DNA of 64,000 nt from an uncultured archaeon (GTDB lineage: Archaea > Thermoplasmatota > Penumbrarchaeia > JASLWR01). This document shows positions 1 to 15,220 of the stretch, one piece after another. The notes below the pieces were generated by a model. That model saw nothing but the letters and a program-made list of their open reading frames with translations, searched no databases and was not told the DNA's origin. The first letter of the stretch is position 1. Each line of letters opens with the position of its first letter. The DNA is taken from positions 1 through 64,000 of the forward strand of contig CAYFHS010000006.1 of the NCBI GenBank assembly GCA_964342815.1, in the 5' to 3' direction. The translations under genes and the position numbers were made by a program.

Positions 1-2278
1 TTCCGGGAGTCCCGTTGAGAATACCAAAGAAGGTATCCAAATTTAGCCAAGTAGCGGTGGTATCAAGGTGCCAAGTAACGTTTCCCTGACCGTCATCGGT
101 GCAATCGTAATCGACACTGTATTCCCGGGCTTCATGAGCGCTGAGAATATTTGGTATGGTGATGGATGGGGCGGTATTATTCACCTGGATGGTGAAATTT
201 ATTATCCCTCTTGCACCCACAGCCTCTGCTAACAGTTCAACCCAGTATCTACCTACATCGGAGTTGTCAGGTCTACCAAATATTTTTTTCTGTCCGGAAT
301 TCCACGCCAGCCATGACGCGTTAGTATTAAATGACCAGGAGTCCGGTACGATAGCGGATGCTTCAAAATGCAGCCTAAAATCTATAGAATCTTCATGGAC
401 ATAGACGGTACTTGGCTTTGGGTTGATATCGATTCCCTGGCCGATAGTGAGGTTAACGAATTTTGTGGGATCCTTGCGGGATGTAATCTGTACCCAGCCA
501 CCTTCTGAGGCATTGATCCATTGGTATCGGTCGTGTGTGCGGTTGGCGATTGTGATGTTGCCTCGGAACTTCCCTGTGTTTGCCCCGGTTTCATGTAATC
601 TCAATCTGAATTGTTGATTAGGATTTGAACTACTTTTGACCCAGACCTGGGCAATATTCTTCCGAGTGGCATCAGCGTCGTTACCTTGTAGTTCCAGGTA
701 TATCTTGTCACCCTGTTCTGCGGACATAATTTCATGTGAGTATTCATCGTCAGAATTGGCTTTGACAGAGGTAATAGATAAAGGTCCCGAATTGTGGTCT
801 GGGAAAATAAGGTATGTCTGGCCTGACAGATCACCACCGTTGTCATCCCCATATGCCCCTGTTAGAATGTCATCATATCCGTCTCCGTTGACGTCCCCTC
901 CACCAGCGACCGATACTCCTAAATTGACGTAAATATCCTCACCCCAGAATGATGCATCCGATATAGAGAGGTCGGTGTCCATGGCCCAACTAGACCCCTT
1001 GCCGAGTATAAGATAAGTCTGACCTGCCTGATTACCACCTTCGTTGTTATTATTTGCTCCAATCAGAATGTCGTCATATCGATCACCGTTGACATCCCCC
1101 GCTCCAGCGACCGACATTCCAGAATTGTCGCCAGACGCCTCTCCCAAGAATGACGCGTCCGAAGCAGAGAGGTCGGTGTCCATGGCCCAGCCAGATGCTT
1201 TGCCGAGTATGAGGTATGTCTGGCCGGACCAAGCAAATGCTCCAATCAGAATATCATCATAACCATCATCGTTAATGTCTCCGGCACCTGCGACCGAGTA
1301 TCCGGAATAGTCGCCTTGGTTCTCTCCCCAGAAGGAAGCATCAGAATCGGATAGGTCGGTATCCATAGCCCAGCCGGAGGGTTTTCCGAGTATGAGGTAT
1401 GTCTGGCCTGCAGATTGACCGCCATCTTCGTCACGATCGGCTCCCACCAAAATGTCGTCGTATCCGTCTCCGTTAACGTCCCCAATACCTGCAACTGAGC
1501 GTCCAGAATAGTCGCCTGCGTCCTCTCCCAGGAATGATGCATCTGCATCCGAGAGGTCGGTATCCATAGCCCAGCCGGAGGATTTTCCGAGTATAAGGTA
1601 TGTCTGACCTGCATCATTACCGCCGTCGTTGTCACTGGATGCCCCAATGAGAATGTCGTCGTATCCATCCCCATTGACATCCCCAGCACCAGCGACTGAA
1701 CTTCCGGATCGGTCCTGCGTGTCTTCCCCTAAGAAAGATGCATCTGAATTAGAGAGGTCGGTGTCCATTGCCCAGCCAGAGGCTTTGCCGAGTATGAGGT
1801 ATGTCTGACCTGCGCCCCTGCCACCGTTACTGTTACTTTCGACTCCAATGAGAATATCATCATATCCATCACTGTTGACATCCCCAGCACACGTGATCCC
1901 TGACCGTCCTGCTGAATCGTCAGTGTCCTCCCCCCAGAATGATGCGTCTGCCGCCGAGAGGTCGGTGTCCATAGCCCAGCTGGAGGATTTTCCAAATATG
2001 AGATATATCTGGCCTGCCGAATTACCGCCGTCATCATCACCGAATGCTCCAATGAGAATGTCGTCGTATCCGTCTCCGTTGACGTCCCCCACGCCAGCCA
2101 CAGATCTTCCTGAACGATCGTCCGCGTCCTCTCCCCAGAATGACGCATCAACATTTCCGATGTCTGTATCCATACCATAATCAATTGCTTTCACTGGTGT
2201 AAATACTAATAAGGGAAGAAGAAATAACACATTCATCAGAAGAATGAAGGTTATCAGAAGGACTTGCCCTTTTTTCAT
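1..2278 (-). CDS. Secreted FG-GAP (integrin alpha-like beta-propeller) repeat protein followed by cadherin/He_PIG-like Ig domains; runs off the window start
   Basis: Not in the ORF track because it has no stop in the window. Manual translation from ATG 2278: MKKGQVLLITFILLMNVLFLL (signal peptide), then repeated DASFWGE..D..G..VAG.GDVNGDGYDDILIGA...AGQ.YLI.G, later ATWLNLDTFFGILNGTP. Frame is open where spot-checked. Confidence 0.9.
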   Translation of the reverse strand, partial: MKKGQVLLITFILLMNVLFLLPLLVFTPVKAIDYGMDTDIGNVDASFWGEDADDRSGRSVAGVGDVNGDGYDDILIGAFGDDDGGNSAGQIYLIFGKSSSWAMDTDLSAADASFWGEDTDDSAGRSGITCAGDVNSDGYDDILIGVESNSNGGRGAGQTYLILGKASGWAMDTDLSNSDASFLGEDTQDRSGSSVAGAGDVNGDGYDDILIGASSDNDGGNDAGQTYLILGKSSGWAMDTDLSDADASFLGEDAGDYSGRSVAGIGDVNGDGYDDILVGADRDEDGGQSAGQTYLILGKPSGWAMDTDLSDSDASFWGENQGDYSGYSVAGAGDINDDGYDDILIGAFAWSGQTYLILGKASGWAMDTDLSASDASFLGEASGDNSGMSVAGAGDVNGDRYDDILIGANNNNEGGNQAGQTYLILGKGSSWAMDTDLSISDASFWGEDIYVNLGVSVAGGGDVNGDGYDDILTGAYGDDNGGDLSGQTYLIFPDHNSGPLSITSVKANSDDEYSHEIMSAEQGDKIYLELQGNDADATRKNIAQVWVKSSSNPNQQFRLRLHETGANTGKFRGNITIANRTHDRYQWINASEGGWVQITSRKDPTKFVNLTIGQGIDINPKPSTVYVHEDSIDFRLHFEASAIVPDSWSFNTNASWLAWNSGQKKIFGRPDNSDVGRYWVELLAEAVGARGIINFTIQVNNTAPSITIPNILSAHEAREYSVDYDCTDDGQGNVTWHLDTTATWLNLDTFFGILNGTPG
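800..2160 (-). repeat. Seven coding FG-GAP repeats, about 185-205 bp period
   Basis: ccc(c)agaatga(t/c)gc(a/g)tc-like blocks near 941, 1141, 1325, 1526, 1727, 1931 and 2133. Confidence 0.85.
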
Positions 2279-2528: not shown

Positions 2529-2771
2529 ATGACTATCCGCATCACTATCAGGGATGCCGACACTGGCAGTAAAGTGGAGATGGACCTTGAAGAAGATAAT
2601 TCGATTGAGGAGACCATAGAAAGCGCGGCAAGTTACTGGGAAAAGGAAGCAGGCGCCTACGTGCTTAGATACGGAAAAAAGGTGCTGCGTGGACAGACCA
2701 CCATCGGAATGTCCGCCATCCGCGACGGGGACCTCCTTGAGTTAATTCCAGACCCCGAGGGCGGTTGTTGA
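2529..2771 (+). CDS. Ubiquitin-like (beta-grasp, Ub/YukD-type) small protein with C-terminal GG-Cys
   Basis: 80 aa. YVLRYGKKVLRGQTTIGMSAIRDGDLLELIPDPEGG aligns by eye with ubiquitin [42 protein letters not shown] RBS upstream. Confidence 0.75.
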   Translation: MTIRITIRDADTGSKVEMDLEEDNSIEETIESAASYWEKEAGAYVLRYGKKVLRGQTTIGMSAIRDGDLLELIPDPEGGC

Positions 2772-2969
2772 GCAAACTCAGCCCGAGGGGGTATGTGTTT
2801 TCTCACCCCTTTTGCCTTCAATGCCGCAAACGGATTTCTGACGTTTAGTAAGGTAAATCCACAAAAATATCGGTTGACCGTTTGCCAGAATTATTTGATT
2901 TAGCAAAAATTCTTTATTTAATCTGCTGTACCAGCAGGTAAATTATACCGGTTACAGGTGTATGTAATT

Positions 2970-3836
2970 ATGAAAGCGGATGCTGGAAAACTTCTCGATC
3001 TATTGGAGGAAGAGGTGGAAGGTATCGGGCTCGAGGCTCGTAAAAAACTGTTTCCCATTATCGATGGATTCATAAACGATCTTAAACGTGAGTTGGGAAA
3101 GGTGATGAAACTTAAGGCGGACAAGCGTCTACGGAATCTCGAAATATCACTGAAGCAGAAATACAACAAACGATCTTCTGTGGTACGACTTTCGGACATC
3201 CCCGAACAGCTCATAGCCGAGATACGCGAGATATGCGAGTTAGAACTGGCATCCAAGTACCGGGACAATGAAATAAAATCGTCCGGAAAGATGATTGCCC
3301 GTGATGAACCGGATTCCGAAACCGGGCCTATGGACGCTTCCTTATCCGACGAAATTACCGAGGAACTCCCCGTATTGACCCCAATTGAGCCTGTTGAACT
3401 CTATATCGGGTCTCTGGCATTCAGGACCATGATGGAACATTGTGTCGATCTTGGAAACCAGGAACTGGAAGCCCTGGGATTCCTGCTTGGAGATCATTTC
3501 ACCCATGGAGGGGAAGAATATACCGTTGTGGAGGAAGTGGTCACTTCGGAGCTGGATTCCTCTTCCATATCGGTGAAAATAAAGGATTTCACCTCCATGT
3601 TCGAGAGAATGTACGAGCTTGAGAAAGCTGGAAAGGACTATATTCTCGTCGGTTGGTATCATTCTCACCCGGGTCACACCTGTTTTCTCTCCCCCAGTGA
3701 TATCGAAACTCAGAAACGCATGTTCAGGGAATCTTACCACGTGGCAGTGGTGGTGGACCCCGTTAACACCGAGATCAAATCGTTCAAGCTGAAGCAGGGA
3801 GACACCCGGGAGATATCCTTCGGCGTATATAGATGA
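2970..3836 (+). CDS. JAB/MPN+ (JAMM) metalloprotease, Rpn11/CSN5-like, with a helical N-terminal extension
   Basis: EALGFLLG, VGWYHSHPGHTCFLSPSDIETQ (HxH-x10-D) and AVVVDP. ATG 2970 chosen because AGGTG lies upstream; the track starts at GTG 2958. Confidence 0.9.
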   Translation: MKADAGKLLDLLEEEVEGIGLEARKKLFPIIDGFINDLKRELGKVMKLKADKRLRNLEISLKQKYNKRSSVVRLSDIPEQLIAEIREICELELASKYRDNEIKSSGKMIARDEPDSETGPMDASLSDEITEELPVLTPIEPVELYIGSLAFRTMMEHCVDLGNQELEALGFLLGDHFTHGGEEYTVVEEVVTSELDSSSISVKIKDFTSMFERMYELEKAGKDYILVGWYHSHPGHTCFLSPSDIETQKRMFRESYHVAVVVDPVNTEIKSFKLKQGDTREISFGVYR

Positions 3837-3851
3837 ATTTAACTGGGAATA

Positions 3852-4139
3852 TCAACCTCGTTTAAGCTTTATACCCTTCGGCAGCAGGATTCCCAGTAAC
3901 AGCAGTACGAAAAAACAGATCAGAATAAAGTAGAAGAGGACCACTTCATCCGAAGGCCAATTAATCAGATCTTTAACAACGTTCACGAGAATGAAGAAGG
4001 CCGCTATCACCAATAAGAATCCAAAGACTTTCCAAGTATTCTTCACATTTAAGGGCCAGTTCCTCCTGGGGTCAGGGAATTTAAACCCTATGATCAGCAA
4101 GATCACAATGAATGCCATTATCAACCAATGGGCCCACAT
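3852..4139 (-). CDS. Small membrane protein (about 3 TM)
   Basis: Three hydrophobic stretches; starts 6 bp after the AAA gene stop, same strand. Confidence 0.65.
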   Translation of the reverse strand: MWAHWLIMAFIVILLIIGFKFPDPRRNWPLNVKNTWKVFGFLLVIAAFFILVNVVKDLINWPSDEVVLFYFILICFFVLLLLGILLPKGIKLKRG

Positions 4140-4145
4140 AATTTA

Positions 4146-7100
4146 TCAATCCCAATCGTCGTCTTCGTCATAGTCTTCTTCACGGTACCTGCTGGTTTCC
4201 CGCAGGTCCGCTTCCTCCCACCCGTTCTCCGCTCTATCATCATCCTCTTCATCATAGTCATCATCCCACCCCTCATCATCTTCTTCACCGCCATCATATC
4301 TGCTTACCCTATACGATCTCTCTTGCTCACCCCGCCCGCTTTCTTTGGTCACCTTCTTTCCACCACCGGTTATCTTGTGAACCTTTCTCTCGTAGTGAGA
4401 CTGTAATTCTATGTAATCCTTCTGCATCTTCTTCGAGATCGACGGCTTCAGTATCTCAATCATATCACGGAAATCGTCCATGCTGATCGTGGTGCTCCTC
4501 TTGGTTGAAAGCGCCCGCCTCATTGCCTGGGTGGCGCATTCACGGCAGAGGTTTGCAATGTCCGCTCCGGAATACCCATCGGTGAGCTCGGCAATCTCTT
4601 TCACGTTGATCTTTCCTCCCGTGGGCTTGCCTTTCATGTGTATCTTCAATATCTCCATCCTATCCCGGGGTCCCGGTGGTGGCACGTACATCACCTTGTC
4701 GAACCTACCCGGCCTTAATAGTGCGGGATCCACCAGCTCGGGTTTGTTGGTGGCCGCGATTATTATTATCCCCGAGAACTCGTCCATTCCGTCCATCTCT
4801 GATAGCATGATACTTAAAAGCCTTGGGGTGACGTCGTCTGCGCTGTAGAAGTCTCTCCTCTTTGCAATGGCGTCGATCTCGTCCAGGAACAGCAGGCAGG
4901 GTTGCTTTTCCCGGGCTATCTTGAACAGATCGTTTATCAGGTTCTCGGACTCACCGTACCACTTCGACATTACGTCGGAACATTTGACCCCTATCATCTC
5001 CACATTCAGCTCGGTTGCTATTACCCGCATAAGCAGCGTCTTCCCGCATCCCGGGGGACCGAAAAGTATCATGCCCTTGGGGGGTACCACTCCGTATTTT
5101 CTGGACATTTCCGGCCTAAGGAGCGGGCCTATCATCGAATCGGTTATCTCACTCTTGACGCCTTTCAGACCGCCAACATTTTCGAAAGACGATTTCCGGA
5201 AGCTCATCATATCCGATATCCTCGTACCCACCCCTATGGTCTTCTTATCAACATAGAACTCGGAGTAGGCACCCCTCAGAATGAAGGCAAGGGAAATGGC
5301 GAAAAGGAGAGCCGGGAAGGCAAGAACGTAAACAAATATATACTTCCATGAAAAGACCAGGTCGGTGGTAAAATCGGCAAGGAACATCCCTCCTATGGTG
5401 GCTGCGAGAAGTATGCCTCCTGCGGTGAACGAGTAGATGAATACAGTTTGGTTTTTATTCTTTGTCTCAAGCTTTTTCTTTATGAGATATACCACCAGAA
5501 CCATCAGGACCCATACCAATACCTGCAGTATCGGTACCATTGACGACATGTAATCTTTTATGAAGCTGATCATGGCACCACCGTCGATATCCCTTATACC
5601 GCCGAATGCATTGAAGTATTGAGTGGGTGAAAATAATTTATCCCCCGGGACCTTCGAGAACGTTGTAATGCTGCTCTTTTCGGTTGCGTAGGGTGATACT
5701 ATGAAAGAAAGGTTGATCACGTTGCCTGTGGCCGTCACCATGGATAGGAACAGCCCCGATACAACGGTGACGGTGATGCTGGTAAAAAGCGAGAACAGAA
5801 AGATCGAGAACACGGGAACCAGGAACGAAATCCCGAAGGTAGAGAGAAATACGGTCAGGAACGATAGATAACCGAATTTCCAGTTAAAAAGAGAGCAGAC
5901 ACAGACGATGAGGGCGAATATCATGAATAATAAGCCGAACTGCGCTGTTTGAAAGGCAGTGGAGCCGATGACTGCGAAGCTGATGAACAGCAGTGCGATA
6001 TACGGGAACCGATATCCTATAGCCCCCGTGACGAGAGCGATGATCATGACCATCCACCAGGGATAGAAGGGGCACCACAGGGCTCCGAAGAATCCCAGGA
6101 AACCGAATGCCACGGCAGTGCTGATGTCCTTTTTACGCTCTATGCTCCGAAGGCGTTTCTCGAGATCGATAACTATCTTTCGGTATCCCTTGATTTCAGT
6201 TTTTTCCTGTATTTTTCCCTTCTTCTTTGCCTGTTTCTTCTCTTCCGCAGATTCCCGCTCTCGAGCACCCCGGTCTTTCAGATATAGAAAAGCGATGGGG
6301 AACATTAGGGTTACGATTGCAAGTGTTACAATAACCCTGAGTGACGGAAAGTCCATTATGTCGAGGCCGGTTGAGATGTCTTTCACGTCATAATATATCA
6401 GGAACGTGGATTCCGTTGTATTCTCGTCGATCCTTACGGTTATCTCCTTCGGTTCATAACCGATTTCCAGGGGTTCCACCCTGATGTTGTATTCTCCATC
6501 CACCATGTCCGTGGGCGTCCAGATTAGACCGTTTACAGTTTCCATGGAAAAGAGATATCCAGCAGAGTTGTATACGGTTATCTCCGCTTCGATATAATTG
6601 GATATTATATTGTCGTATGCTCCGGCTATTATTCCGTAATGATACGTTTCTTCAGGCACTTCCACCACGTATTTATAATCTCTCGAGGTCATGGGAGTGT
6701 CGTATTCGTCGTAGGCAGTAACGGAAAAGACAACAGTGGTGTTCCCGTGGTAATAGGGAATATTTGTTTTGTAAGATGTATCGTCGATCCGGGTCATGGA
6801 TTTCGACCAGTCGATCCAATTGGGATTGCCCGGAAGCTGGAAGGAAACGTTTAAGTCGGCCCGGTTGATGATCACCACGGGATTGTTTCCCTCAATCTTC
6901 ACTTCGACGGTATCGTTGACAGAGGGAGGGACCGGGCCGTAGCTTAGGTTCATGTTCGCCTCGAAGGTGTGAAACCGCCAGGATATCTTTGGCTCCACGT
7001 TGTAGTAGTAGGTTCGGGACCTTAACTGCCGGACTCCGTCGTAAACAGTAACGTAGAATGATATGTTGGTGTTCCCCGGGTACCCGTAGAGTTCGACGAA

Positions 7101-7403
7101 GGCATCTGTCTTGCTAGTCAGATTCATTTCATATGCACCGGAGGATTTGAAATCCCCTCCTCTGATGTCCAACCAGATGTATGCCCACAAGAGCTCCACA
7201 TCGTTCAGCGAGTGAATTGTAACGTTAACCTCCTCATATTCAGATGGGATCTCCGGAGTATAAATTAGCTGGACATTGTCGTCGAAATTGTCGTTTACGA
7301 ATACGGCACCTTGGGCGTTGTCCATAGCAAGGGAAAGTGCCAGAGTGGAAATGAATCCAAGCAGTATCAGCGGTATTATCCATCGGTAATTCATGGCTAT
7401 CAC
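4146..7403 (-). CDS. Polytopic membrane-anchored AAA+ ATPase (Cdc48-like module) with an N-terminal ectodomain and acidic tail
   Basis: Signal peptide, about 330 aa beta-rich region, about 10 TM, then GPPGCGKT, LFLDEID, KWYGESE pore loop and ATNKPELVDPALLRPGRFD. No HExxH protease domain seen. Confidence 0.9.
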   Translation of the reverse strand: MIAMNYRWIIPLILLGFISTLALSLAMDNAQGAVFVNDNFDDNVQLIYTPEIPSEYEEVNVTIHSLNDVELLWAYIWLDIRGGDFKSSGAYEMNLTSKTDAFVELYGYPGNTNISFYVTVYDGVRQLRSRTYYYNVEPKISWRFHTFEANMNLSYGPVPPSVNDTVEVKIEGNNPVVIINRADLNVSFQLPGNPNWIDWSKSMTRIDDTSYKTNIPYYHGNTTVVFSVTAYDEYDTPMTSRDYKYVVEVPEETYHYGIIAGAYDNIISNYIEAEITVYNSAGYLFSMETVNGLIWTPTDMVDGEYNIRVEPLEIGYEPKEITVRIDENTTESTFLIYYDVKDISTGLDIMDFPSLRVIVTLAIVTLMFPIAFLYLKDRGARERESAEEKKQAKKKGKIQEKTEIKGYRKIVIDLEKRLRSIERKKDISTAVAFGFLGFFGALWCPFYPWWMVMIIALVTGAIGYRFPYIALLFISFAVIGSTAFQTAQFGLLFMIFALIVCVCSLFNWKFGYLSFLTVFLSTFGISFLVPVFSIFLFSLFTSITVTVVSGLFLSMVTATGNVINLSFIVSPYATEKSSITTFSKVPGDKLFSPTQYFNAFGGIRDIDGGAMISFIKDYMSSMVPILQVLVWVLMVLVVYLIKKKLETKNKNQTVFIYSFTAGGILLAATIGGMFLADFTTDLVFSWKYIFVYVLAFPALLFAISLAFILRGAYSEFYVDKKTIGVGTRISDMMSFRKSSFENVGGLKGVKSEITDSMIGPLLRPEMSRKYGVVPPKGMILFGPPGCGKTLLMRVIATELNVEMIGVKCSDVMSKWYGESENLINDLFKIAREKQPCLLFLDEIDAIAKRRDFYSADDVTPRLLSIMLSEMDGMDEFSGIIIIAATNKPELVDPALLRPGRFDKVMYVPPPGPRDRMEILKIHMKGKPTGGKINVKEIAELTDGYSGADIANLCRECATQAMRRALSTKRSTTISMDDFRDMIEILKPSISKKMQKDYIELQSHYERKVHKITGGGKKVTKESGRGEQERSYRVSRYDGGEEDDEGWDDDYDEEDDDRAENGWEEADLRETSRYREEDYDEDDDWD

Positions 7404-7407
7404 ATCT

Positions 7408-8898
7408 TCAGGTGCCCACAGCGACCTTTTGTCTCGATATCAATCGTTTTTTGAGTTTTAATCGTTCGATGATTCCCAGCCCAACGAAACCGGCAATAAA
7501 GTATTCCACGGGGAAGACAACCGGAGTGGCTGCTGCAGGCAATCCAGTAGGAGCGCTAAGAGGGATCACCGTTGGGGGGGCGGGATTTATCACCACCACA
7601 GGGGAGCCTCCGGGGGGTGGCGGGGGAGGTGGCGGAGGTCCGGGCATTGGCGGCGGGCTCGGAGGGATCATCCATTCCAGGGGGGGTTTAGATGATTTGA
7701 TAGTAAGCGTGACAGTGGAAAAGAACTCCTGGTGTTCATCGTCCCTTACATTGTACACTACTCTGGCAGAGTTAGGGGGATGGAGAGAAACATTTGAATC
7801 TATGAGGTTTGAGGAGATATTGTAGCTGATAAGTATCTTATCACCGATGCTGACCTTGCTTATGTTCCATTCCATGACAGTCAGATTGTCTTCTGTGCCG
7901 TACATGGCATCCGGGTATCTCGTAAACGAGTTTTGGTCGATGTAAAAATCATTGTACAGAACGTCCCGGATCATCGGTTCTGAATCATTGACGTCCGGGT
8001 CGTACCCGGCGGTGTAGTTGCGAAACCTCATTGCTATATTCTCGTAGATGGGCTGCAGATCGTTTGCAGTCTTGGCAATGAAATATTCCCCTCCGGTCAT
8101 ATTTGCGATCCACTTTAACAGCTCCTCGTCAACCAGGGATGAGGACCTATCTTGGTATAGTCCTATGGTATGAATGGTTATGTTCAACGCAATGGTCTCG
8201 TTAAGCACATCGGTGGTTATGTTCGTTGATAGCGGTTCAGGTTTACCATCCGTAAGAAGTATGCAAACCCAAGACTTGTTCTCTTCTCCATAATTTAAAA
8301 ACTCAGCGTTCATTAATTGTATCGCAGCATTGAAGTTTGTTCCATCCTGATTGTCCCAATCGCTGAGATCGCTCATAACCCTGTCATAATCGGAGGACAA
8401 ATGATGGCCGCCTACCAGTTCCGCATTTCCATAGAATCTCACTACGGCAGCCCTATCCGGTGCTAGCAAATGCTCCGTGTAATTCTTTGCCGCCTCGAGC
8501 CTGAGGAAATCCGTATCTGCATCATTCATGCTTGTGGAGCTGTCAACGGTGAAAACAACATCCTGGGAATTGAAATCGATTGCGGGATTTCCTGCACCGG
8601 ATATCTCCAGATTGACAGTTGCATTTTTTGGCCCCCTTTCGTCGTCTTTCTGCCAGATCTCATCGATTGAAACGGATTTATCTACCACCAGATGGGGAGG
8701 TGAGTTTACATCGATACCGGCGTCTGTTCGCTGCCGTGGTCCTTCGACTGGGTTTTCGGCTATTTCAAGATCAAGCGGTTGCGAATTGAGATATACGGAG
8801 CCAGCGGGAGCGGCTCCATGGATTTGGATAAGATAAGCTGCCAGGCAGAAAAGAACCCCAGTTATGATTGCAATGGTTGTGCCCCTCATCTTATACAT
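7408..8898 (-). CDS. vWA-domain surface protein with Pro-rich linker and C-terminal TM
   Basis: MIDAS DSSTS, GTNFNAAI, LLTDG; poly-Pro linker; hydrophobic helix followed by RLKLKKR. Confidence 0.85.
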   Translation of the reverse strand: MYKMRGTTIAIITGVLFCLAAYLIQIHGAAPAGSVYLNSQPLDLEIAENPVEGPRQRTDAGIDVNSPPHLVVDKSVSIDEIWQKDDERGPKNATVNLEISGAGNPAIDFNSQDVVFTVDSSTSMNDADTDFLRLEAAKNYTEHLLAPDRAAVVRFYGNAELVGGHHLSSDYDRVMSDLSDWDNQDGTNFNAAIQLMNAEFLNYGEENKSWVCILLTDGKPEPLSTNITTDVLNETIALNITIHTIGLYQDRSSSLVDEELLKWIANMTGGEYFIAKTANDLQPIYENIAMRFRNYTAGYDPDVNDSEPMIRDVLYNDFYIDQNSFTRYPDAMYGTEDNLTVMEWNISKVSIGDKILISYNISSNLIDSNVSLHPPNSARVVYNVRDDEHQEFFSTVTLTIKSSKPPLEWMIPPSPPPMPGPPPPPPPPPGGSPVVVINPAPPTVIPLSAPTGLPAAATPVVFPVEYFIAGFVGLGIIERLKLKKRLISRQKVAVGT

Positions 8899-8904
8899 CC
8901 GTCC

Positions 8905-11900
8905 CTAGTCGTAAAAATCATCTTCATCGTCAATCCAGCCGCTCATTTCATCAACATCGTCAGCAGCTATTCCATAGGGTTTATCGCTTTCTCCCCTCTC
9001 TTCTCTCATACGCCTGCGCTGATCCTTCCAGTCCTTCTTTCTCCTCTTCGTCTCCGCCTCATCCTCTTCCAGGTAATCCGTTTCGTCTTCTGGCTCGTCT
9101 TCAAGCCATCCCCCCATCTCCTCCATGTCCTCCTGGGCATCCTGGTAGCGTCCTCCACGGCCTTTTTTATTCCCACGTCTCCCTTTTTTCCCCTTTCTCC
9201 CATTACCACGCGTTGAAGACTTTTTCTTCTCCTCTCTCCTTTTGGATCCCTTAAAGGAGGATAATCTTCCGGAAATTCTATCGTCTTCCTCTTCCGTATC
9301 TTCTTCTATCCCATCCTCCGCTTCCAACAGGTCCGAGGTCACAACTGCAGTATCGCTTTCAGTCTCATCAGATTTCCCCTGGTCTTCCTCTTTATTTCCC
9401 CTCTCCGCCTTTTCCATTTTATCGCCTTTCACCCATTTTTTAGCCTGGCCCGTTCGTATCAGCACGAAAATGATAATTATTATCACCAGTATCAGAAGAA
9501 TGAAAAGAATTAACGGCATAGTATCGCTGAATTCCTGAAGGAATGGCGTTTCGTTCTTCACTTCTATCACGGATGATTGGATTCTCTCGTTACCGTACTC
9601 GTCCACTGCTTTTATCTGATATGTGTGCTTACCATTGTCCTCCACATCGGTTGTCCATATGTACCAGAATGAGTTGTCCGCCTCGTCATATCCCATCTCT
9701 TTCCAGCCGGTTCCTTCTATGTTTATATACATTCGCGAAGCATTGTCATTGTTCTCCACCCTGAACTCGATCTCGCTGTCTCCCTTTACTGGTACGTTGT
9801 CAAGCAGGACGCCTGGCCCCATGTTATTGAAGCTTACCTGCACCATAGCAATATTCGACTTTCCCACATAGTCCCTTGCGGTGATAATGAGGGTATGGCC
9901 ACCGTCCTGATATTTCGCGGTATCAATGGGGACTTCGTACAGGCCGGTTACCGGATTGATAAATACGCTGACAGGTGTACCATTGTCCACCGACATGGCC
10001 ACAGATTCTATCGAGACAGTGTCGTAACAATATGCCTTAACAGTATTCGTTCCGGTCAGGTGATCTCCTATCCCCGGAGTGACCACGGTTAGATCCGGTA
10101 CTGAATTGTCCACATTTACTTTTATTGTACGTGTTGTGATGTGTCCGGCCTCATCAACCGCCATTAATTCTATTTCGTGGGCTCCGTCGGTGTAGTTCCT
10201 GGTATCCCAAAGGTTCAGCCCAGTGGAGTTGATCTTCACCCAACCGGTTTTGTCCACATTGTATTGAATATTTGTGTTATAATGATCCGTTGAGCTTACG
10301 ACTATCTCGGCAAGGCCGGTAATATAAGAGTTTCCGGTTGGTTTTTTGATATCGAGTGTGGGGAAGTTCCCGTCGACTCGGAACTGTACCGGAGCAAGGG
10401 TAACCGTGTTAAGGGACCCATCATATGCTGTAACCGTAATTTCATAGCTGCCGTCCGGGATACCGTAAAGTGATTGGGTGTACTCGTAGTAATTGGTGAC
10501 GGAATTGTGTGTTGCCTGAACCCTTTTTGCGTATGAAGAACCTGCAAAAATGTAGAGCTCCACCTTCTCGACGCCCAGGCTGTCCGAGGCAAGTACCCTG
10601 AATGTCATGGATCCTTCCACGAACTGATCCGGTGTTGGACTGTGAACCGTGCATTCCGGAAATCCGTTGTCCACAGTTACCGTGATGGTCTCCACCACAG
10701 TGTGTCCAATGGCGTCCCTTGCTCTTATTGATATGGTATGCATTCCATCCCCGACCCTGGTGGTATCCCATGGAACGCCGATATGATGCCATCCGGATGA
10801 ATCCACGTTGTACTCGGTGGGATTGGGGTACGAATCGATAGTTGTGACGTTGATGTCCACGCTTCCATTGAGATAATTAAGGTTCTTGGGGCTGTTGATC
10901 TCCAGCTTGGGTGGTGTGTTGTCCACGTTGAAGAAGACTGGTCCTGCATTCGCCTCCTTTCCGGAAAGATCGTAAGCCCTGGCTGAGATCGTCTGGATCC
11001 CGTCCTCCAGGATCACAGTGGTATCAAGGCTGTACTCGTAATAACCGCTCTGGCTGTTGAATGTAGCATTTACAAGTTCGTTGTATATGTCCAGGACAAC
11101 TTGAGATATACCAACTGCGTCGCTCACCTTTATCTTGAAGGTCACGACACCCTGCACATATTGGTTATCGTACGGGGTATGTATCTCGCAAGTGGGCTTC
11201 TTGTTATCCACTGTCAACGTTATGGTTTGGAGGGTCGAATGTCCAGCGAGGTCTCTGCCCCGAATATCTATAACGTGCTTTCCGTCGCTTATCGACGTTG
11301 TGTTCCAGTGAACCGAAACATCATTCCAACCGCTGGAATCCACATTGTATTCGAGAGATCGTGGGAATGACTCTCCACTAAATGATGCGTTAAGCTGAAC
11401 CAAACCGGAAACGATATCGCCCTCCCGCGGGGAATCAATAAGGAGCTTGGGTGCATTGTTGTCGACCTGGAAATCAACCTGGGCTGATATCGTAAGATTC
11501 CCGGCTCGATCCAGCGCCATTATAGTGGCCGAATAATTCCCGTCACTGACTCCGTTCGTATCAAAAATACACTCATAGTAACCCGTACCGGCGTTGTAGC
11601 TCATGGAAATGTTCACAATCTCAGTCTGGCTGGACATATCCACGATAACGGCCCTTACACTGCTGAGTCCCACCTCATCGGAGACGATGGCGCCAAGTGT
11701 GTATATCCCTGCCAGGAATTGGTTCGCGGAAGGGAGATTAAGTCTGCATTCCGGGTCATGATTGTCTATGGTAATTATAATGCTCTCAAGGACCTCATGG
11801 CCGGCAATGTCCCTAGCTCGGATCCTCATAACATGGTCCCCGTCCGGAAACAGTCCCGTACTCCAATTGACCGAGCTGTTGACCCAGCCCGAACTATCGA

Positions 11901-14900
11901 TATTATATTCGATAATGTCCAAAAAGGTATCGGTTACTGATATGTTTAGGCTGAATGTCCCGTATACTATCTGGCCGTTCGTTGGCTCATATATCGTCAT
12001 TCTCGGAAAGTTGTTGTCTATGTTGAACTCTCTGCTGGCGGATGATCTGCTAAGACCCGCTTTGTCATGAGCGTATGCTGTGAACCAGTAGCTGCCGTCC
12101 GGGAGATTTGCGGTTCCCAGTACCAGTTCGAAATAGCCGGAATCAGAATTATATCCCATGGAAGTGTTGGAAACCAGCTCTACCCCTGTTTCGTTTATTA
12201 TTGTGCCGTTCACGCTTTCAATCCCGATATCGTCCGTGGCTGTTACCCTGAACGAGTAAAGCCCCTCTATGAATTCCCCCGTTATCGGGGTAATCACAGA
12301 AGATTGATCCGGCGCGGTGTTGTCCGCGATGAAATTTATTTCCAGGGTGGATTCGGCACCGTACGGGTCCTTTGCGTTCACGTAGAGAACATGGGCTCCG
12401 TCAAGATACTGGGATGAATCCATTACGGCTCCGAATTCGCTTCCGGAGAGCAGAGACATGTTGAACCATGCGTTTGCGTCTACCCGGTAACGGGGATTGG
12501 TGTCGGTATCCTGGATCCCATCCGGGTCGCTGATGTTCGCTATGATCTGATAATTACCCGATACAATGGCTCCAGCCACGAGGTTTTTCATTATAATATC
12601 CACGTCGTTGAATATCTCAATATTCCCGGATTGACTGCCCAGATTACCCGCTTTGTCGTATGCGTTTACAGTGTAGGTATAGACCCCCGATACGAGTCCT
12701 GTGGTGACAGTTACGTTTTCCGAGGAGTAGTCGCCGTCGTAGGCTGTTTCGTCGTTCCCCAATCCATCATCCCTCATGGGCACCTGATTGGCACCGCCTA
12801 TGTTGGATGCATCGAGATAAACATTCCCCAACCCGGTCTGACCGTCAGAACAATTGGACACCACGTATATGGAATATCCGTCTTGGGCCTTGGTGCGGCC
12901 AGCGGGATAGGTGGTATTCACCCGGCCTACTGAGGGCTGTATGTTGTCCAATCTCACTGTGTATTGTGTTCCGTTCATGTTGCCCGCACGGTCGGTCCCT
13001 TCCACCTGAAATACGATATCGCCCGTTTCCAGGCTGTTCACGGTAACCAGCTCGGAGCCGTATATGTCGTCGTTGGCCTTTCCGTCGGCGTGCTTTCCGT
13101 CGTCGAACATGTTCACCTTGAGGGCGAGACCTATGGATGAGAGATCCGCCTGGATGGAATCGATTCCGTGGGGCTGTTCTATACCCAGGGTGCTGGCGCC
13201 GAAACTCTGGATCACCTGGGAAACGTTGTTGTAGATGTCATACAAGTCTGTGGAGGACGGAGCAAAATAGTATTTACCCCCAATCGAAGAATTGGCTATG
13301 CTCCAAAGGTCGAACTCGGTGGTGTATTTGTAGGAAGCGGCAGTCGGATCAAGGTAACCGGAAGCTGTGGCATTGGTTCCCTGGGGCCACATCCCCAGAC
13401 CAATGGTGAAGATCGGGATACTGGCATTTACCAGCCCCGTACGCGTCCTTTCGGCCGATCCCCCCGGAAAATTAGCCGTGGTCTTCGCGTTGATAGGATT
13501 GGTATCTCGCTCCCTCTGTATGGAAGGATAGGCTCTCATTGGCGAGTCCCATATACAGCCTCCGCTCACGCTCCAAGTCTGTCTACCCGCACCGTTAGGT
13601 GCTCCGGGACAGTATGTTTCCGAGCCGGTTTCGAGCCGGTTTCCACCAAGTGTTCCACCGGTATCGTTACCGTCGGTCATTGCGATGATTACGGGAACCG
13701 CCTCCTCTCTCCGGTTGTTGAGGGCATACTGGATTCCCGTACCGATGGTATCCCATATGGGAGTGTTGGCCAATGGCTGGCCCGACACCATAGTCAAGTG
13801 GGCCCCGTCGTCCACGGTGATTATGTATTTCGAGATATTGCGCCCGGTGTCCGTTTCAGGGGAGCCCTGCGGATCGTTATAGGTTTCGGACATAATAAAA
13901 AAGGGGGAGTACTGTTTGACGTCTTCCAGAGCCCCACCCCCCTGTCGGTCGAAAGATACTATGGCGCACCTGTCATTATCTGCAAGCTGATCAATAAATG
14001 TGGATGAAGCGTATTCGAGGTCATCCCATTTCATTCCTCCGGAGCCGTTCGAGTCACGCATTGATCCCGAATTATCCAGAACAAGCACCACATCCAGAGG
14101 TTTTCTCTCGACGACATCCTCGATCAATATTTTGTAATCCAACGCCTTTGCCGTGACCCTAATTGTGTCTCCATTTTTGACAGCTACCTGACCCGCCGGG
14201 AGCATGGTATCGATCTCCAGTATCGTTGGTTCGTACTGGTCCACGTTGCATGCGGCAGTGACGTTTCTAAAATTCCCCTGTGAATCTGTGGAATGAACGT
14301 AGGCTGCCCGATATCCCCCGCCAACCGTTACATTTACCAGCGCCGTACCGTAAATATTATCATTGGGTGCCCCATCGTTGTGGAGTCCGTCGTCGTACAT
14401 GGTAAGATCGGATGCGTCACCGATCATAGTGGCATCGCAGAGAACCGAAGAAATAGAGGAAACCGATTCTGTTACTTTTGCGGTAATTGTGACCTTGTCG
14501 CCGGGTTTTGCCGTATCCTGGCCGGTTGGATAGAGTGTTGTTGCATTGGTGATCTGAGGTCCGGAATTGTCGAACTTGACCGGGATCGAGGTAATGTCGT
14601 CAGTGGTATCTCCCGTTGAATCGTATCTGATTATATGGCGCCCGTCACTCCATCCCGATGTGTTTATCTGGAAAGACCATGTGGGACCGCCGGACATAGT
14701 GGCGATCAACACCCCGTCTATACTCAACTCCACCTTGTCTGCATTTGTGGAATTACACCTGAAGTTCACAATGCCGGTAAGGATATCTCCCGATTCCGGG
14801 ATATAGGGAGTAACGGGATTCGCACTTGTGGTTCCGGTGAACAAACCCAAGACTCCAAACCAACTGATAACGATCATTGCGGTCATGGCAGTAGCAGACC

Positions 14901-14931
14901 ATTTACTTCTATAGTTGAACATAACAATCAC
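8905..14931 (-). CDS. Giant (2008 aa) surface protein: Ig-like repeats, vWA, three choice-of-anchor-X-like motifs, C-terminal TM and charged tail
   Basis: DVVLVLDNSGS MIDAS, AMTDG; DDGLHNDGAPNDNIYG, DDGKHADGKANDDIYG and DDGLGNDETAYDGDYS; about 10 'DNxxP' Ig boundaries; TM LILFILLILVIIIIIFVLI. Confidence 0.88.
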   Translation of the reverse strand: MIVMFNYRSKWSATAMTAMIVISWFGVLGLFTGTTSANPVTPYIPESGDILTGIVNFRCNSTNADKVELSIDGVLIATMSGGPTWSFQINTSGWSDGRHIIRYDSTGDTTDDITSIPVKFDNSGPQITNATTLYPTGQDTAKPGDKVTITAKVTESVSSISSVLCDATMIGDASDLTMYDDGLHNDGAPNDNIYGTALVNVTVGGGYRAAYVHSTDSQGNFRNVTAACNVDQYEPTILEIDTMLPAGQVAVKNGDTIRVTAKALDYKILIEDVVERKPLDVVLVLDNSGSMRDSNGSGGMKWDDLEYASSTFIDQLADNDRCAIVSFDRQGGGALEDVKQYSPFFIMSETYNDPQGSPETDTGRNISKYIITVDDGAHLTMVSGQPLANTPIWDTIGTGIQYALNNRREEAVPVIIAMTDGNDTGGTLGGNRLETGSETYCPGAPNGAGRQTWSVSGGCIWDSPMRAYPSIQRERDTNPINAKTTANFPGGSAERTRTGLVNASIPIFTIGLGMWPQGTNATASGYLDPTAASYKYTTEFDLWSIANSSIGGKYYFAPSSTDLYDIYNNVSQVIQSFGASTLGIEQPHGIDSIQADLSSIGLALKVNMFDDGKHADGKANDDIYGSELVTVNSLETGDIVFQVEGTDRAGNMNGTQYTVRLDNIQPSVGRVNTTYPAGRTKAQDGYSIYVVSNCSDGQTGLGNVYLDASNIGGANQVPMRDDGLGNDETAYDGDYSSENVTVTTGLVSGVYTYTVNAYDKAGNLGSQSGNIEIFNDVDIIMKNLVAGAIVSGNYQIIANISDPDGIQDTDTNPRYRVDANAWFNMSLLSGSEFGAVMDSSQYLDGAHVLYVNAKDPYGAESTLEINFIADNTAPDQSSVITPITGEFIEGLYSFRVTATDDIGIESVNGTIINETGVELVSNTSMGYNSDSGYFELVLGTANLPDGSYWFTAYAHDKAGLSRSSASREFNIDNNFPRMTIYEPTNGQIVYGTFSLNISVTDTFLDIIEYNIDSSGWVNSSVNWSTGLFPDGDHVMRIRARDIAGHEVLESIIITIDNHDPECRLNLPSANQFLAGIYTLGAIVSDEVGLSSVRAVIVDMSSQTEIVNISMSYNAGTGYYECIFDTNGVSDGNYSATIMALDRAGNLTISAQVDFQVDNNAPKLLIDSPREGDIVSGLVQLNASFSGESFPRSLEYNVDSSGWNDVSVHWNTTSISDGKHVIDIRGRDLAGHSTLQTITLTVDNKKPTCEIHTPYDNQYVQGVVTFKIKVSDAVGISQVVLDIYNELVNATFNSQSGYYEYSLDTTVILEDGIQTISARAYDLSGKEANAGPVFFNVDNTPPKLEINSPKNLNYLNGSVDINVTTIDSYPNPTEYNVDSSGWHHIGVPWDTTRVGDGMHTISIRARDAIGHTVVETITVTVDNGFPECTVHSPTPDQFVEGSMTFRVLASDSLGVEKVELYIFAGSSYAKRVQATHNSVTNYYEYTQSLYGIPDGSYEITVTAYDGSLNTVTLAPVQFRVDGNFPTLDIKKPTGNSYITGLAEIVVSSTDHYNTNIQYNVDKTGWVKINSTGLNLWDTRNYTDGAHEIELMAVDEAGHITTRTIKVNVDNSVPDLTVVTPGIGDHLTGTNTVKAYCYDTVSIESVAMSVDNGTPVSVFINPVTGLYEVPIDTAKYQDGGHTLIITARDYVGKSNIAMVQVSFNNMGPGVLLDNVPVKGDSEIEFRVENNDNASRMYINIEGTGWKEMGYDEADNSFWYIWTTDVEDNGKHTYQIKAVDEYGNERIQSSVIEVKNETPFLQEFSDTMPLILFILLILVIIIIIFVLIRTGQAKKWVKGDKMEKAERGNKEEDQGKSDETESDTAVVTSDLLEAEDGIEEDTEEEDDRISGRLSSFKGSKRREEKKKSSTRGNGRKGKKGRRGNKKGRGGRYQDAQEDMEEMGGWLEDEPEDETDYLEEDEAETKRRKKDWKDQRRRMREERGESDKPYGIAADDVDEMSGWIDDEDDFYD

Positions 14932-15220
14932 TTCCTAAAGATTTATCCTTCCATAACGCAGGTCATTACTAAATATATTTTATGGTACATATTTCGAAAC
15001 AATTCTTATAAGTGGGTGAGTATATTTAACGGACTCCCCTCATATTTTCTATCAACTTACCTTTTTTGCCATTATTTAGTTTAATTATAGAACTTATGTC
15101 GGATTAATCGCATTTTAGCATATAATCGGATTTCTGATTGACCAAAAGAAAAAGACTTTAACAAAATTTTATATCGCTAAAAGTAGTTAACATTTACATA
15201 ATTCTTATTGGGGTACTTAT

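Follow-up and report, generated by a model that had tools for sequence, protein, structure and literature searches.

A conserved four-gene cassette around a membrane AAA protein in uncultured Thermoplasmatota

Four tightly packed minus-strand genes in the genome of an uncultured archaeon are best explained, we infer, as a single-copy operon that is passed on vertically and encodes a machine of the cell envelope in part of the Thermoplasmatota. The genes and their surroundings lie as follows in the window, namely the whole stretch of 64,000 nucleotides that was analysed:

8905-14931, minus strand: gene 1, 2008 aa, giant Ig-repeat/vWA type-I surface glycoprotein
7408-8898, minus strand: gene 2, 496 aa, stalked vWA type-I membrane protein
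4146-7403, minus strand: gene 3, 1085 aa, membrane AAA protein
3852-4139, minus strand: gene 4, 95 aa, 3-TM protein
2529-2771, plus strand: Ubl gene, 80 aa
2958-3836, plus strand: JAMM gene, 292 aa
14932-15220, no strand: divergent intergenic region, AT-rich, 289 bp, between the cassette and a C25 peptidase gene

Direct reading of the sequence confirmed the open reading frame positions and the gaps of 6, 4 and 6 bp which the first-pass annotation had given for the four minus-strand genes, and it places the stop codon of the JAMM gene (3834-3836) 15 bp from that of the 95-aa gene (3852-3854). The gap of 4 bp between genes 2 and 3 presumes a GTG start of the AAA gene at 7403; in the database record the protein starts with the ATG at 7394 and has 1082 aa, by which the gap to gene 2 becomes 13 bp. 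At the other end, 14932-15220 is the likely promoter region of both the cassette and the C25 peptidase gene.

Conservation of the cassette among relatives

The arrangement of the four genes goes far beyond chance, since their order is repeated identically in 18 of 20 relatives' loci, which come from several families and in which the identity of the AAA protein falls to about 33%. Gene 4 directly follows the AAA gene in 19 of the 20 loci, while the contig of the twentieth stops inside the AAA gene; a gene 1 orthologue stands at the equivalent position in 18 of 20, and the gene 2 orthologue is present in one copy per genome and always adjoins the AAA gene, which is itself single-copy in the source genome. 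The membrane part of the AAA protein was matched in 31 of 41 relatives and in 37 of 401 genomes of the phylum, and the cassette is retained in most searched genomes of one class of uncultured Thermoplasmatota. This class is apparently one of marine sediment. In the complete genome G012 the AAA and small-protein genes are present and the two partner genes are absent beside them, thus the motor can exist without both partners. No published description of the four-gene cassette was found in the literature, and the module is apparently undescribed; the earlier proposal of a new module, with a membrane AAA motor and vWA/Ig proteins of the surface at its core, is supported in this respect.

Domain structure of the four proteins

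According to hydropathy, both vWA proteins have an N-terminal signal or anchor and one C-terminal TM segment, the AAA protein has about 10-11 hydrophobic helices and the 95-aa protein has 3. The predicted topology is accompanied by a density of 2.1-3.0 N-glycosylation sequons per 100 aa in the parts predicted to lie outside and by none in the parts predicted to be cytoplasmic. The domains, all on the minus strand, are the following:

6354-7319, minus strand: AAA protein ectodomain, residues 29-350, three tandem FnIII/Ig-like beta-sandwiches
5259-6353, minus strand: family-specific membrane domain, polytopic with about 10 helices, residues 351-715
4383-5201, minus strand: AAA module, residues about 735-1007, single classical AAA
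4149-4382, minus strand: AAA protein C-terminal tail, acidic, with GWDD, GWEE and terminal DDDWD
about 8029-8565, minus strand: gene 2 vWA domain, complete MIDAS, VWA/VWA_2 matches
7411-7524, minus strand: gene 2 C-terminal module, PVEY, Gly-rich TM helix and basic 19-aa tail ending KVAVGT
about 13132-14094, minus strand: gene 1 vWA domain, DNSGS motif
8908-9435, minus strand: gene 1 cytoplasmic tail, two GW(L/I)(D/E) motifs, ending ...GWIDDEDDFYD

In the AAA protein, the AAA and AAA_lid_3 matches occur only at residues 778-978 (PF00004 with 138 bits, AAA_lid_3 with 54 bits). Invariant in 19 orthologues are the Walker A GPPGCGKT, the Walker B DEID, the KWYG of pore loop 1, the RRDFY..DDVTPR of pore loop 2, the sensor-1 N886 and the Arg fingers R897/R900; with Walker A/B, two Arg fingers, an AAA lid and an aromatic pore loop 1, the module belongs to the classical AAA clade (PF00004), and judged by these residues the motor looks intact. 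The ectodomain (AF2 model medc3f84fb344, pLDDT 85.6) retrieves FnIII/Ig triplets from the PDB by Foldseek at E of about 2e-8 and carries conserved residues, and some family members have no ectodomain. The membrane domain between them belongs to no Pfam family and has no clear fold match in the PDB, with nothing found by Foldseek at E<0.2; its family counts only 28 representatives among 1.84 billion proteins. The relatives whose source names were inspected came from Thermoplasmatota. The domain has the invariant residues P445, F446, P448, W450, Q485, G490, F506, Y512 and G524, and among its invariant residues no Cys, His or Arg points to a sortase-like enzyme. Comparison with the ECF S-component, a six-helix bundle, gave Z of 7.0-7.7 by VIA-align over 142-166 residues (rmsd 3.5-4.4, model residues about 162-380), which is below the level that the tool treats as meaningful for helical bundles, and the match to the Atlas ThiT cluster is likewise weak (TM 0.61 by target, 0.30 by query). 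The membrane domain is always accompanied by AAA modules, whether one, two, or split into adjacent overlapping genes, and this constant association suggests that the two parts work together.

In the product of gene 2 a signal peptide precedes the vWA domain and a beta-rich domain, and a polyproline stalk then leads to the TM helix and the short tail. In 17 orthologues the MIDAS residues of this protein (D119, S121, S123, T187 and D217) do not vary, and from PVEY to the C-terminus there is not a single indel across 18 aligned orthologues; this ending is found on no other protein of the source genome. Analogous upstream partners in the double-ring or split cassettes of another class all end (7/7) in ...(K/R)(R/I)(V/I)TL with a tail of about 16-19 aa, and their ectodomains have no Pfam match. 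The 19 conserved residues after the TM helix of gene 2 are longer than the sorting signals of the archaeosortase/exosortase type (PGF-CTERM and kin), and neither vWA protein matched an NCBIfam CTERM model at E<=0.01, a search in which short models can miss.

In gene 1 a signal peptide, an N-terminal Ig-like region, the vWA domain and many Ig-like repeats precede a TM helix (residues 1797-1832) and a charged cytoplasmic tail of 176 aa; the repeats match Big_7/Big_13/Big_3_3, and VWA is matched weakly and in its N-terminal half only. The description of this gene as a giant vWA protein holds only for the source family and one other; in most orthologues the DxSxS vWA motif is absent.

Trp is placed among the last 14 residues of the gene 1 tail in 14 of 18 orthologues and of the AAA protein in 12 of 16, there mostly 2-5 residues from the end, with no strict co-variation between the two. 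Such acidic Trp-ended tails are not cassette-specific and are common on surface proteins genome-wide: at least 23 of the 83 large TM-anchored proteins with acidic tails in the source genome have a terminal Trp motif resembling the one in gene 1, and Trp is fourfold enriched in the last 5 residues. Gene 4 has a conserved basic cytoplasmic loop (P22, W28, P29) and a conserved P87.

Comparison with known systems

Among solved structures the nearest relative of the AAA module is the D2 domain of the unfoldase VAT (256 bits). The likeness to VAT/Cdc48/p97, the type-II classical AAA unfoldases of archaea and eukaryotes (PDB 5vc7, 5g4f), covers positions 450-731 of TIGR01243 and extends to the Walker, pore-loop and RPGRFD motifs and to a C-terminal tail that is acidic and aromatic. 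However, the cassette protein of the source lineage has one AAA module instead of D1 and D2, carries an ectodomain and about 10 TM helices in the same chain, and has no HbYX ending. It matches neither CDC48_N nor CDC48_2, has a single AAA stretch, and reaches 271 bits in TIGR01243 against a cut-off of 803; in the relatives with two AAA modules in other lineages, the membrane domain replaces the Cdc48 N domain. Like FtsH/Yme1 it would have one classical AAA ring, tethered to the membrane through N-terminal TM segments flanking an extracytoplasmic domain, and the mechanism proposed below is modelled on the way in which these enzymes drag membrane proteins out via cytosolic tails. The cassette protein differs in its about 10 TM helices, compared with 2, and in its dedicated co-encoded partners; no Peptidase_M41 was found in the protein or in the genome (88.9% complete), and TIGR01241 gives 228 bits against a cut-off of 600. 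Msp1/ATAD1 is a protease-less single-ring membrane AAA with a KWYG-type pore loop which extracts proteins with a single C-terminal TM segment. By description it is similar in being a protease-less single-ring AAA at the membrane, whereas Msp1 has one N-terminal TM helix and neither ectodomain nor operon partners; it does not appear among the 60 best solved relatives of the AAA module.

For archaea, a "putative secretion system" has been described around arCOG01314, in which an ATPase gene is clustered with genes for secreted vWA/Ig-like and small membrane proteins (Makarova et al. 2015, PMC5898192), and our cassette resembles it in being archaeal, in its mix of genes and in being predicted as a surface or secretion machine. 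But the ATPase there, as in MoxR-vWA systems, is a soluble MoxR/GvpN (COG0714) AAA+, while that of the cassette is a classical AAA fused to a polytopic domain, and the cassette has no flavodoxin-like anchor of the arCOG01314 type. The AAA protein gave no AAA_3/MoxR match, its best matches being to classical AAA (PF00004). The vWA domains are predicted to be extracellular, because each is preceded by a signal peptide and followed by a C-terminal TM helix, and the AAA ring is predicted inside, so that a vWA-ATPase contact in the MoxR style is topologically excluded; the motor-adaptor analogy that had been drawn with MoxR is thus not supported, the ATPase being of the classical type nearest to VAT D2. 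The MBA proteins (membrane-bound AAA) of Sulfolobales, named as a separate archaeal AAA cluster (PMC3493965), are alike by description, as archaeal, membrane-bound, protease-less classical AAA of unknown function. The HbYX motif of proteasome-activating AAA (PAN/Cdc48/AMA), i.e., a small or hydrophobic residue, Tyr/Phe and any residue at the C-terminal end (PMC3493965), is missing from the AAA protein, which ends in DWD, with WEGS, WEEK and the like in orthologues. The gene 1 protein of the source family ends in FYD and fits the pattern; however, this protein is no ATPase, and its ending is kept in three loci only.

A known anti-phage defence system was considered and rejected: with the PADLOC models the AAA protein shows only generic similarity to IetA and TRIP13, the other three proteins have no match, and the cassette is single-copy and vertically conserved.

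Candidate mechanism and its alternatives

The most sensible reading of the cassette is that it pulls on, assembles or turns over surface proteins. More specifically, we would give about an even chance to the reading, drawn by analogy, that a ring-shaped unfoldase below the membrane engages the gene 2 tail, and perhaps the acidic Trp-ended tails, and so pulls on, remodels or extracts surface proteins. The AAA modules would assemble below the membrane into a ring whose entry face is turned to the bilayer, as it is in FtsH, Yme1 and Msp1; the short basic tail of the gene 2 partner would enter the pore and be pulled, by analogy with FtsH, Msp1 and VAT, and the ring might also take acidic tails that end in Trp, among them the tail of the giant protein. 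Pulling could lead to extraction and turnover of surface proteins, or else the stalked vWA head and the giant adhesin on the outside could receive a force or a change of conformation through it. The idea of the tail as a handle comes from the indel-free stretch from PVEY to the end in 18 orthologues and from the similar basic tails of the 7/7 partners in the other class. Against threading counts the length of the gene 2 tail, which at 19 aa is short for engagement by an AAA pore.

It is unlikely that the cassette is instead an assembly or anchoring platform, where the stalked vWA and giant proteins build a surface spike or coat that stands on the AAA ring, its FnIII ectodomains and the 3-TM protein, and ATP is spent on assembly, disassembly or remodelling rather than on tail threading. 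The AAA protein does bear its own three-domain ectodomain with conserved residues, the partner has a rigid polyproline stalk, and its conserved MIDAS could bind the giant protein or the ectodomain, and the single copy in most class genomes searched is as expected for a structural envelope component. However, the fully conserved substrate-gripping pore loops favour polypeptide threading, and the existence of ectodomain-less family members suggests that the ectodomain is dispensable for the core function.

Somewhat less probable is general membrane-protein quality control by a protease-less analogue of FtsH/Msp1 with many clients, for example 20-30 large acidic Trp-tailed proteins, of which the co-encoded proteins would be adaptors or the commonest clients. 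The source genome, where no FtsH protease domain was found, and its many Trp-ended acidic tails would agree with such a role; yet the AAA gene is strictly paired, one to one, with an adjacent partner whose tail is unique, which suggests a dedicated system; the AAA protein lacks the HbYX motif by which substrates would be passed to the 20S proteasome (PMC3493965), and a Trp tail on the AAA protein itself is odd for a degron. At a similarly low level we place a transmembrane winch, by which the AAA ring would grip the fixed-length tail of the stalked vWA protein and mechanically actuate or retract giant adhesins, with about 20-30 other Trp-tailed giant proteins as its wider clientele; if true, prokaryotes would have here a motor-driven equivalent of inside-out integrin signalling, or of dislocation in the ERAD manner, that evolved without ubiquitin.

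Quite improbable is an export motor, in which the AAA ring would push polypeptides out via a channel in the membrane domain as a new secretion route for the giant protein. It is suggested by the fusion of an unfoldase to a polytopic domain and by the large secreted proteins encoded beside it, but both partners have N-terminal signal peptides and are hence probably Sec substrates, and, save for the weak ECF S-component match, the membrane domain is unlike known channel or transporter cores. Moreover, substrates of the known membrane-anchored classical AAA proteins enter from the N-terminal side, which faces the membrane, and are thus moved towards the cytoplasm, against the direction of export.

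The 292-aa neighbour has a JAB match, and the 80-aa neighbour has weak ubiquitin/YukD matches below cut-off. This pair adjoins the cassette only in the source genus (the source genome and a same-genus genome); in sister genera it is located on another contig (G003) or 70 kb off (G002), it was found in none of the 24 genomes of family f7, though the AAA query had matches in 20 of the 24, and G005, G006, G037 and G040, in which no cassette was found, do have the pair. The synteny across relatives thus upholds the four-gene cassette but not the link of Ubl-JAMM to the vWA/AAA operon that the first-pass annotation had drawn, as the two gene sets occur independently, an outcome which that annotation had itself named as refuting the link. 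Ubl and JAMM are best seen as a pair of their own, unrelated to the cassette and conserved independently of it, which came to lie next to it in this genus alone. An ERAD-like pathway, with surface proteins tagged by the Ubl and with the JAMM protein and membrane AAA acting jointly, can therefore be practically dismissed, despite the 15 bp between the stops in the source and same-genus genomes and despite the cooperation of eukaryotic Cdc48 with ubiquitin and deubiquitinases, also because the Ubl-JAMM and cassette genes converge and hence are not co-transcribed. Attractive as it is, the "proto-ERAD" reading of Ubl-JAMM-AAA has no support from comparative genomics.

The classical AAA unfoldases known from membranes are either proteases (FtsH, Yme1) or extractases anchored by one helix (Msp1). 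In the cassette such a motor is joined in one chain with a large membrane domain that has no clear fold match and with surface domains of its own, and it is genetically tied to dedicated surface partners. If the motor pulls the tails of these partners, as in the reading we prefer, it would represent a new prokaryotic coupling of cytoplasmic ATP to surface adhesion, remodelling or the turnover of giant glycoproteins, and it would offer a simple archaeal model for ubiquitin-free membrane-protein dislocation by Cdc48-type motors.

Gene layout and conservation of the cassette

The ORF map and the translations bear out the layout of four closely packed minus-strand genes drawn in the first-pass annotation.

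Genes of the cassette in the window (ORF map and translation)
8905-14931, minus strand: giant gene, 2008 aa
7408-8898, minus strand: stalked vWA gene, 496 aa
4146-7403, minus strand: membrane AAA gene, 1085 aa
3852-4139, minus strand: small 3-TM gene, 95 aa

As read directly from the sequence, the junction of the giant and stalked vWA genes is TAG-ggacgg-ATG and that of the AAA and 95-aa genes is TGA-taaatt-ATG; between the stalked vWA and AAA genes it is TGA-agat-GTG, or 13 nt if the ATG start of the database record is used. The stop of the 95-aa gene lies 15 bp from that of the plus-strand JAMM gene. Searches of Pfam and NCBIfam find an AAA module with its AAA lid just once in the 1085-aa protein (residues 778-978). 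The 496-aa protein has a vWA domain, and in the giant protein the matches are to Ig-like repeats and to half of a vWA domain, the N-terminal one. Sequons occur at 2.1-3.0 per 100 aa in the predicted outside parts and at 0 in the cytoplasmic parts, and this density, along with hydropathy, fits a topology in which both vWA proteins are surface glycoproteins of type I whose tails, like the AAA module, lie in the cytoplasm.

The N-terminal and membrane part of the AAA protein was matched in 31 of 41 relatives, representing most families of the class, and in none of four genomes from other classes; across the phylum, 37 of 401 sampled genomes had it, and these belong to the same class and to two other families. 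The order giant, stalked vWA, AAA and small 3-TM is kept in 18 of the 20 fetched loci, the exceptions being a contig that stops short of the giant gene and a complete genome, G012, with the AAA and small-protein genes only. In the latter (locus L029, 3754-7291, single contig) the AAA gene has a shortened ectodomain and stands with the small 3-TM gene, the stalked vWA and giant genes are absent, and a divergent Big_9/PKD/TSP3 protein adjoins instead. The stalked vWA partner is present in one copy per genome, invariably beside the AAA gene, and its MIDAS residues are invariant. As for the giant protein, its vWA domain is restricted to the family of the source organism and one other, and its constants are the Ig-like repeats, a single C-terminal TM helix and a charged tail.

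In another family, f7, the giant gene is immediately preceded on its own strand by two genes (L025, 16738-18539; equivalents in L030, L032, L033 and L039), one for a RadA/KaiC-like ATPase of about 240 aa and an unknown one of about 360 aa (361 aa). Both were considered as extra components of the cassette; since the homologue of the ATPase gene in the source genome is on another contig (C1), that gene is probably a mere neighbour.

The motor and the cytoplasmic tails

Residues 29-350 of the membrane AAA protein form three beta-sandwiches in a confident model (pLDDT 85.6), matching FnIII/Ig triplets, and residues 351-715 form about 10 helices in which Pro, Phe, Trp, Gln and Gly residues are invariant and the orthologue alignment has no enzyme-like invariant Cys, His, Asp or Glu. 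For this membrane part, the AF2 model reached medium quality (pLDDT 70, pTM 0.73) and had no Foldseek match in the PDB (best E 0.2); its sole recurring resemblance, a weak one, is to the six-helix bundle of ECF S-components (VIA-align Z 7-7.7; Atlas TM 0.61 by target), a level which is possibly that of a mere common helical arrangement. Feature searches of the ESM Atlas with the membrane domain and with the 95-aa protein returned unnamed clusters only, all below 0.9. By exhaustive HMMER search the membrane domain is found in just 28 proteins among 1.84 billion representatives. Of nine representatives scanned, eight have AAA modules (one or two each), some with the ectodomain and some lacking it; in the ninth, a naturally split form, the membrane domain and the AAA module are encoded by two overlapping genes within the same kind of cassette.

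The nearest solved relative of the AAA module is the D2 domain of the unfoldase VAT. Judged by its sequence the motor is intact: 19 orthologues show no variation in Walker A or B, the pore loops (KWYG and pore loop 2), sensor 1 or either arginine finger. Docking to the proteasome through an HbYX motif was ruled out, because the endings of the AAA tails are W-acidic rather than Hb-Y/F-X.

Variants of the arrangement were also observed. In G014 an additional 363-aa AAA-domain ORF (L036, 3332-4423) lies between the membrane AAA and small 3-TM genes, possibly a second ring that has split off or degenerated, which would place it between the one-ring and two-ring forms. A natural split form is seen on a JGI metagenome contig (L046, 4148-7664), where a 705-aa gene encoding the ectodomain and membrane domain overlaps a separate 468-aa AAA gene by 8 bp; its cassette also encodes two upstream partners ending (K/R)VTL, a protein of 117 aa and a PKD protein of 1473 aa.

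Going towards its C-terminus, the stalked partner has its polyproline stalk, then an extended segment that is conserved, the PVEY motif, a TM helix rich in Gly and finally a basic tail of 19 residues that ends (K/R)V.VG(A/T/S/V) and in the 496-aa protein reads ERLKLKKRLISRQKVAVGT. Zero indels separate PVEY from the C-terminus in the alignment of 18 orthologues, and no second protein of the source genome has this ending. In the cassettes of another class with two AAA modules or a separate AAA gene, the ectodomains of the proteins just upstream of the AAA gene had no Pfam match, yet all 7 of these partners that were examined finish in a single TM helix followed by a comparable short, basic tail, ...(K/R)(R/I)(V/I)TL. 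A constant cytoplasmic tail under a changing ectodomain is as expected of an element coupling to a cytoplasmic motor. A complex prediction, made as a monomer from alignments of the membrane-plus-AAA part and of the last 70 residues of the stalked vWA protein, scored 0.01 ('no answer'), and counts neither for nor against binding because a monomer cannot show a hexameric pore. Sortase-like processing of this C-terminus is unlikely, as no CTERM model matched it and the membrane domain of the AAA protein has no catalytic-looking invariant residues.

Besides the basic tail, the cassette has acidic ones: the giant protein (14 of 18 orthologues) and the AAA protein (12 of 16) each have an acidic tail in which a Trp lies a few positions before the end. 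A scan of the source genome, the sole genome scanned, found 83 large C-terminally TM-anchored proteins with acidic cytoplasmic tails (median 1220 aa), of which 23 have Trp within the last ten residues, with about fourfold enrichment of Trp in the last five positions of the 83; ELEWED, DDEWEV and DDWEYD are example endings.

Example loci from the tail scan (source genome)
Contig C1, 134812-139377
Contig C13, 8915-12889
Contig C26, 5615-9046
Window, 44252-45373, plus strand

Since the motif is genome-wide, the idea of a tail link specific to the giant and AAA proteins is weakened. The ending is possibly a genome-wide tail tag, and such tails may mark a wider client set or serve something unrelated.

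Proposed action, alternatives and the Ubl-JAMM pair

In FtsH, Yme1 and Msp1 the ring lies beneath the membrane, its entry face, on the N-terminal side, turned to the bilayer, and substrates are pulled out via their cytosolic tails. For the cassette, the analysis shows a conserved set of genes, a motor that is intact, the membrane topology and a dedicated partner whose tail is fixed; the rest we infer from these known membrane AAA machines. The AAA ring under the membrane may well take hold of the cytoplasmic tail of the stalked partner, and perhaps of Trp-acidic tails too, the outcome being extraction or mechanical actuation of surface proteins; we regard this reading as about evenly balanced. 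That the same gene set serves as an assembly platform is unlikely. General quality control with a wide clientele is a little more doubtful again, and an export motor is quite improbable.

The first-pass annotation had also linked the cassette to a Ubl-JAMM pair beside it, and had named independent occurrence in relatives as the finding that would speak against the link.

Plus-strand neighbours of the cassette in the window
2529-2771, plus strand: Ubl gene, 80 aa, ends GG-Cys
2958-3836, plus strand: JAMM gene, 292 aa, JAB match

In Pfam and NCBIfam, the 292-aa protein has its JAB match and the 80-aa protein, with its GG-Cys ending, has sub-threshold ubiquitin/YukD matches only. The pair adjoins the cassette solely in the source genome and a genome of the same genus; in two sister genera it lies 70 kb away or on another contig, Ubl-JAMM queries had no match in 24 genomes of family f7, 20 of which matched the AAA query, and the pair is present in four genomes where the cassette search found nothing. 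Pair and cassette thus occur independently, the very result named beforehand, and we reject the link; as their distribution indicates, the pair is unrelated to the cassette, and a Ubl-coupled version of the machine is exceedingly improbable. Moreover, the Ubl and JAMM genes stand side by side in at least six other genomes and therefore form a conserved pair in their own right. Identity of the Ubl is unusually high, at 100% within the genus, 96% and 87% for the sister genera and about 80% for another class, while the AAA protein drops to 43-49% within the family.

Two other neighbours were observed in the window. A membrane-anchored, gingipain-like peptidase C25 of 688 aa (15221-17287, plus strand) is divergent from the giant gene, an arrangement found in 3 of 3 other genomes of the family (L020-L022) and in none outside it; the peptidase may process surface proteins, or the arrangement may be just retained synteny. 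Just beyond the Ubl gene (2-2278, minus strand) a large protein of FG-GAP repeats (beta-propeller, integrin-alpha-like) is encoded, with a hydrophobic segment at its N-terminus, and no conserved linkage was seen for it; together with the vWA proteins, it lends the region an 'integrin-like' flavour.

Comparison with known systems

The membrane AAA protein is built from a VAT-D2-like module and would work most like FtsH or Msp1. It lacks the defining features of Cdc48 (no N domain in Pfam or NCBIfam), of FtsH (no M41 protease domain) and of proteasome activators (no HbYX ending). The earlier likening to MoxR-vWA pairs also fails, the MoxR signature being absent in the same databases. An archaeal neighbourhood of vWA, Ig and ATPase genes, the MoxR-type arCOG01314 system, was described by Makarova et al. 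2015 (PMC5898192); unlike the cassette, it combines a soluble MoxR ATPase with other membrane proteins. Membership of a known defence system was rejected by a defence-system profile search.

No paper on the architecture or the operon was found in the literature searched, the nearest being that MoxR-type system and a mention of the Sulfolobales MBA group (PMC3493965). The cassette is apparently undescribed, as first proposed. Altogether, it is a real, conserved variant of a membrane AAA machine, whose function we infer.
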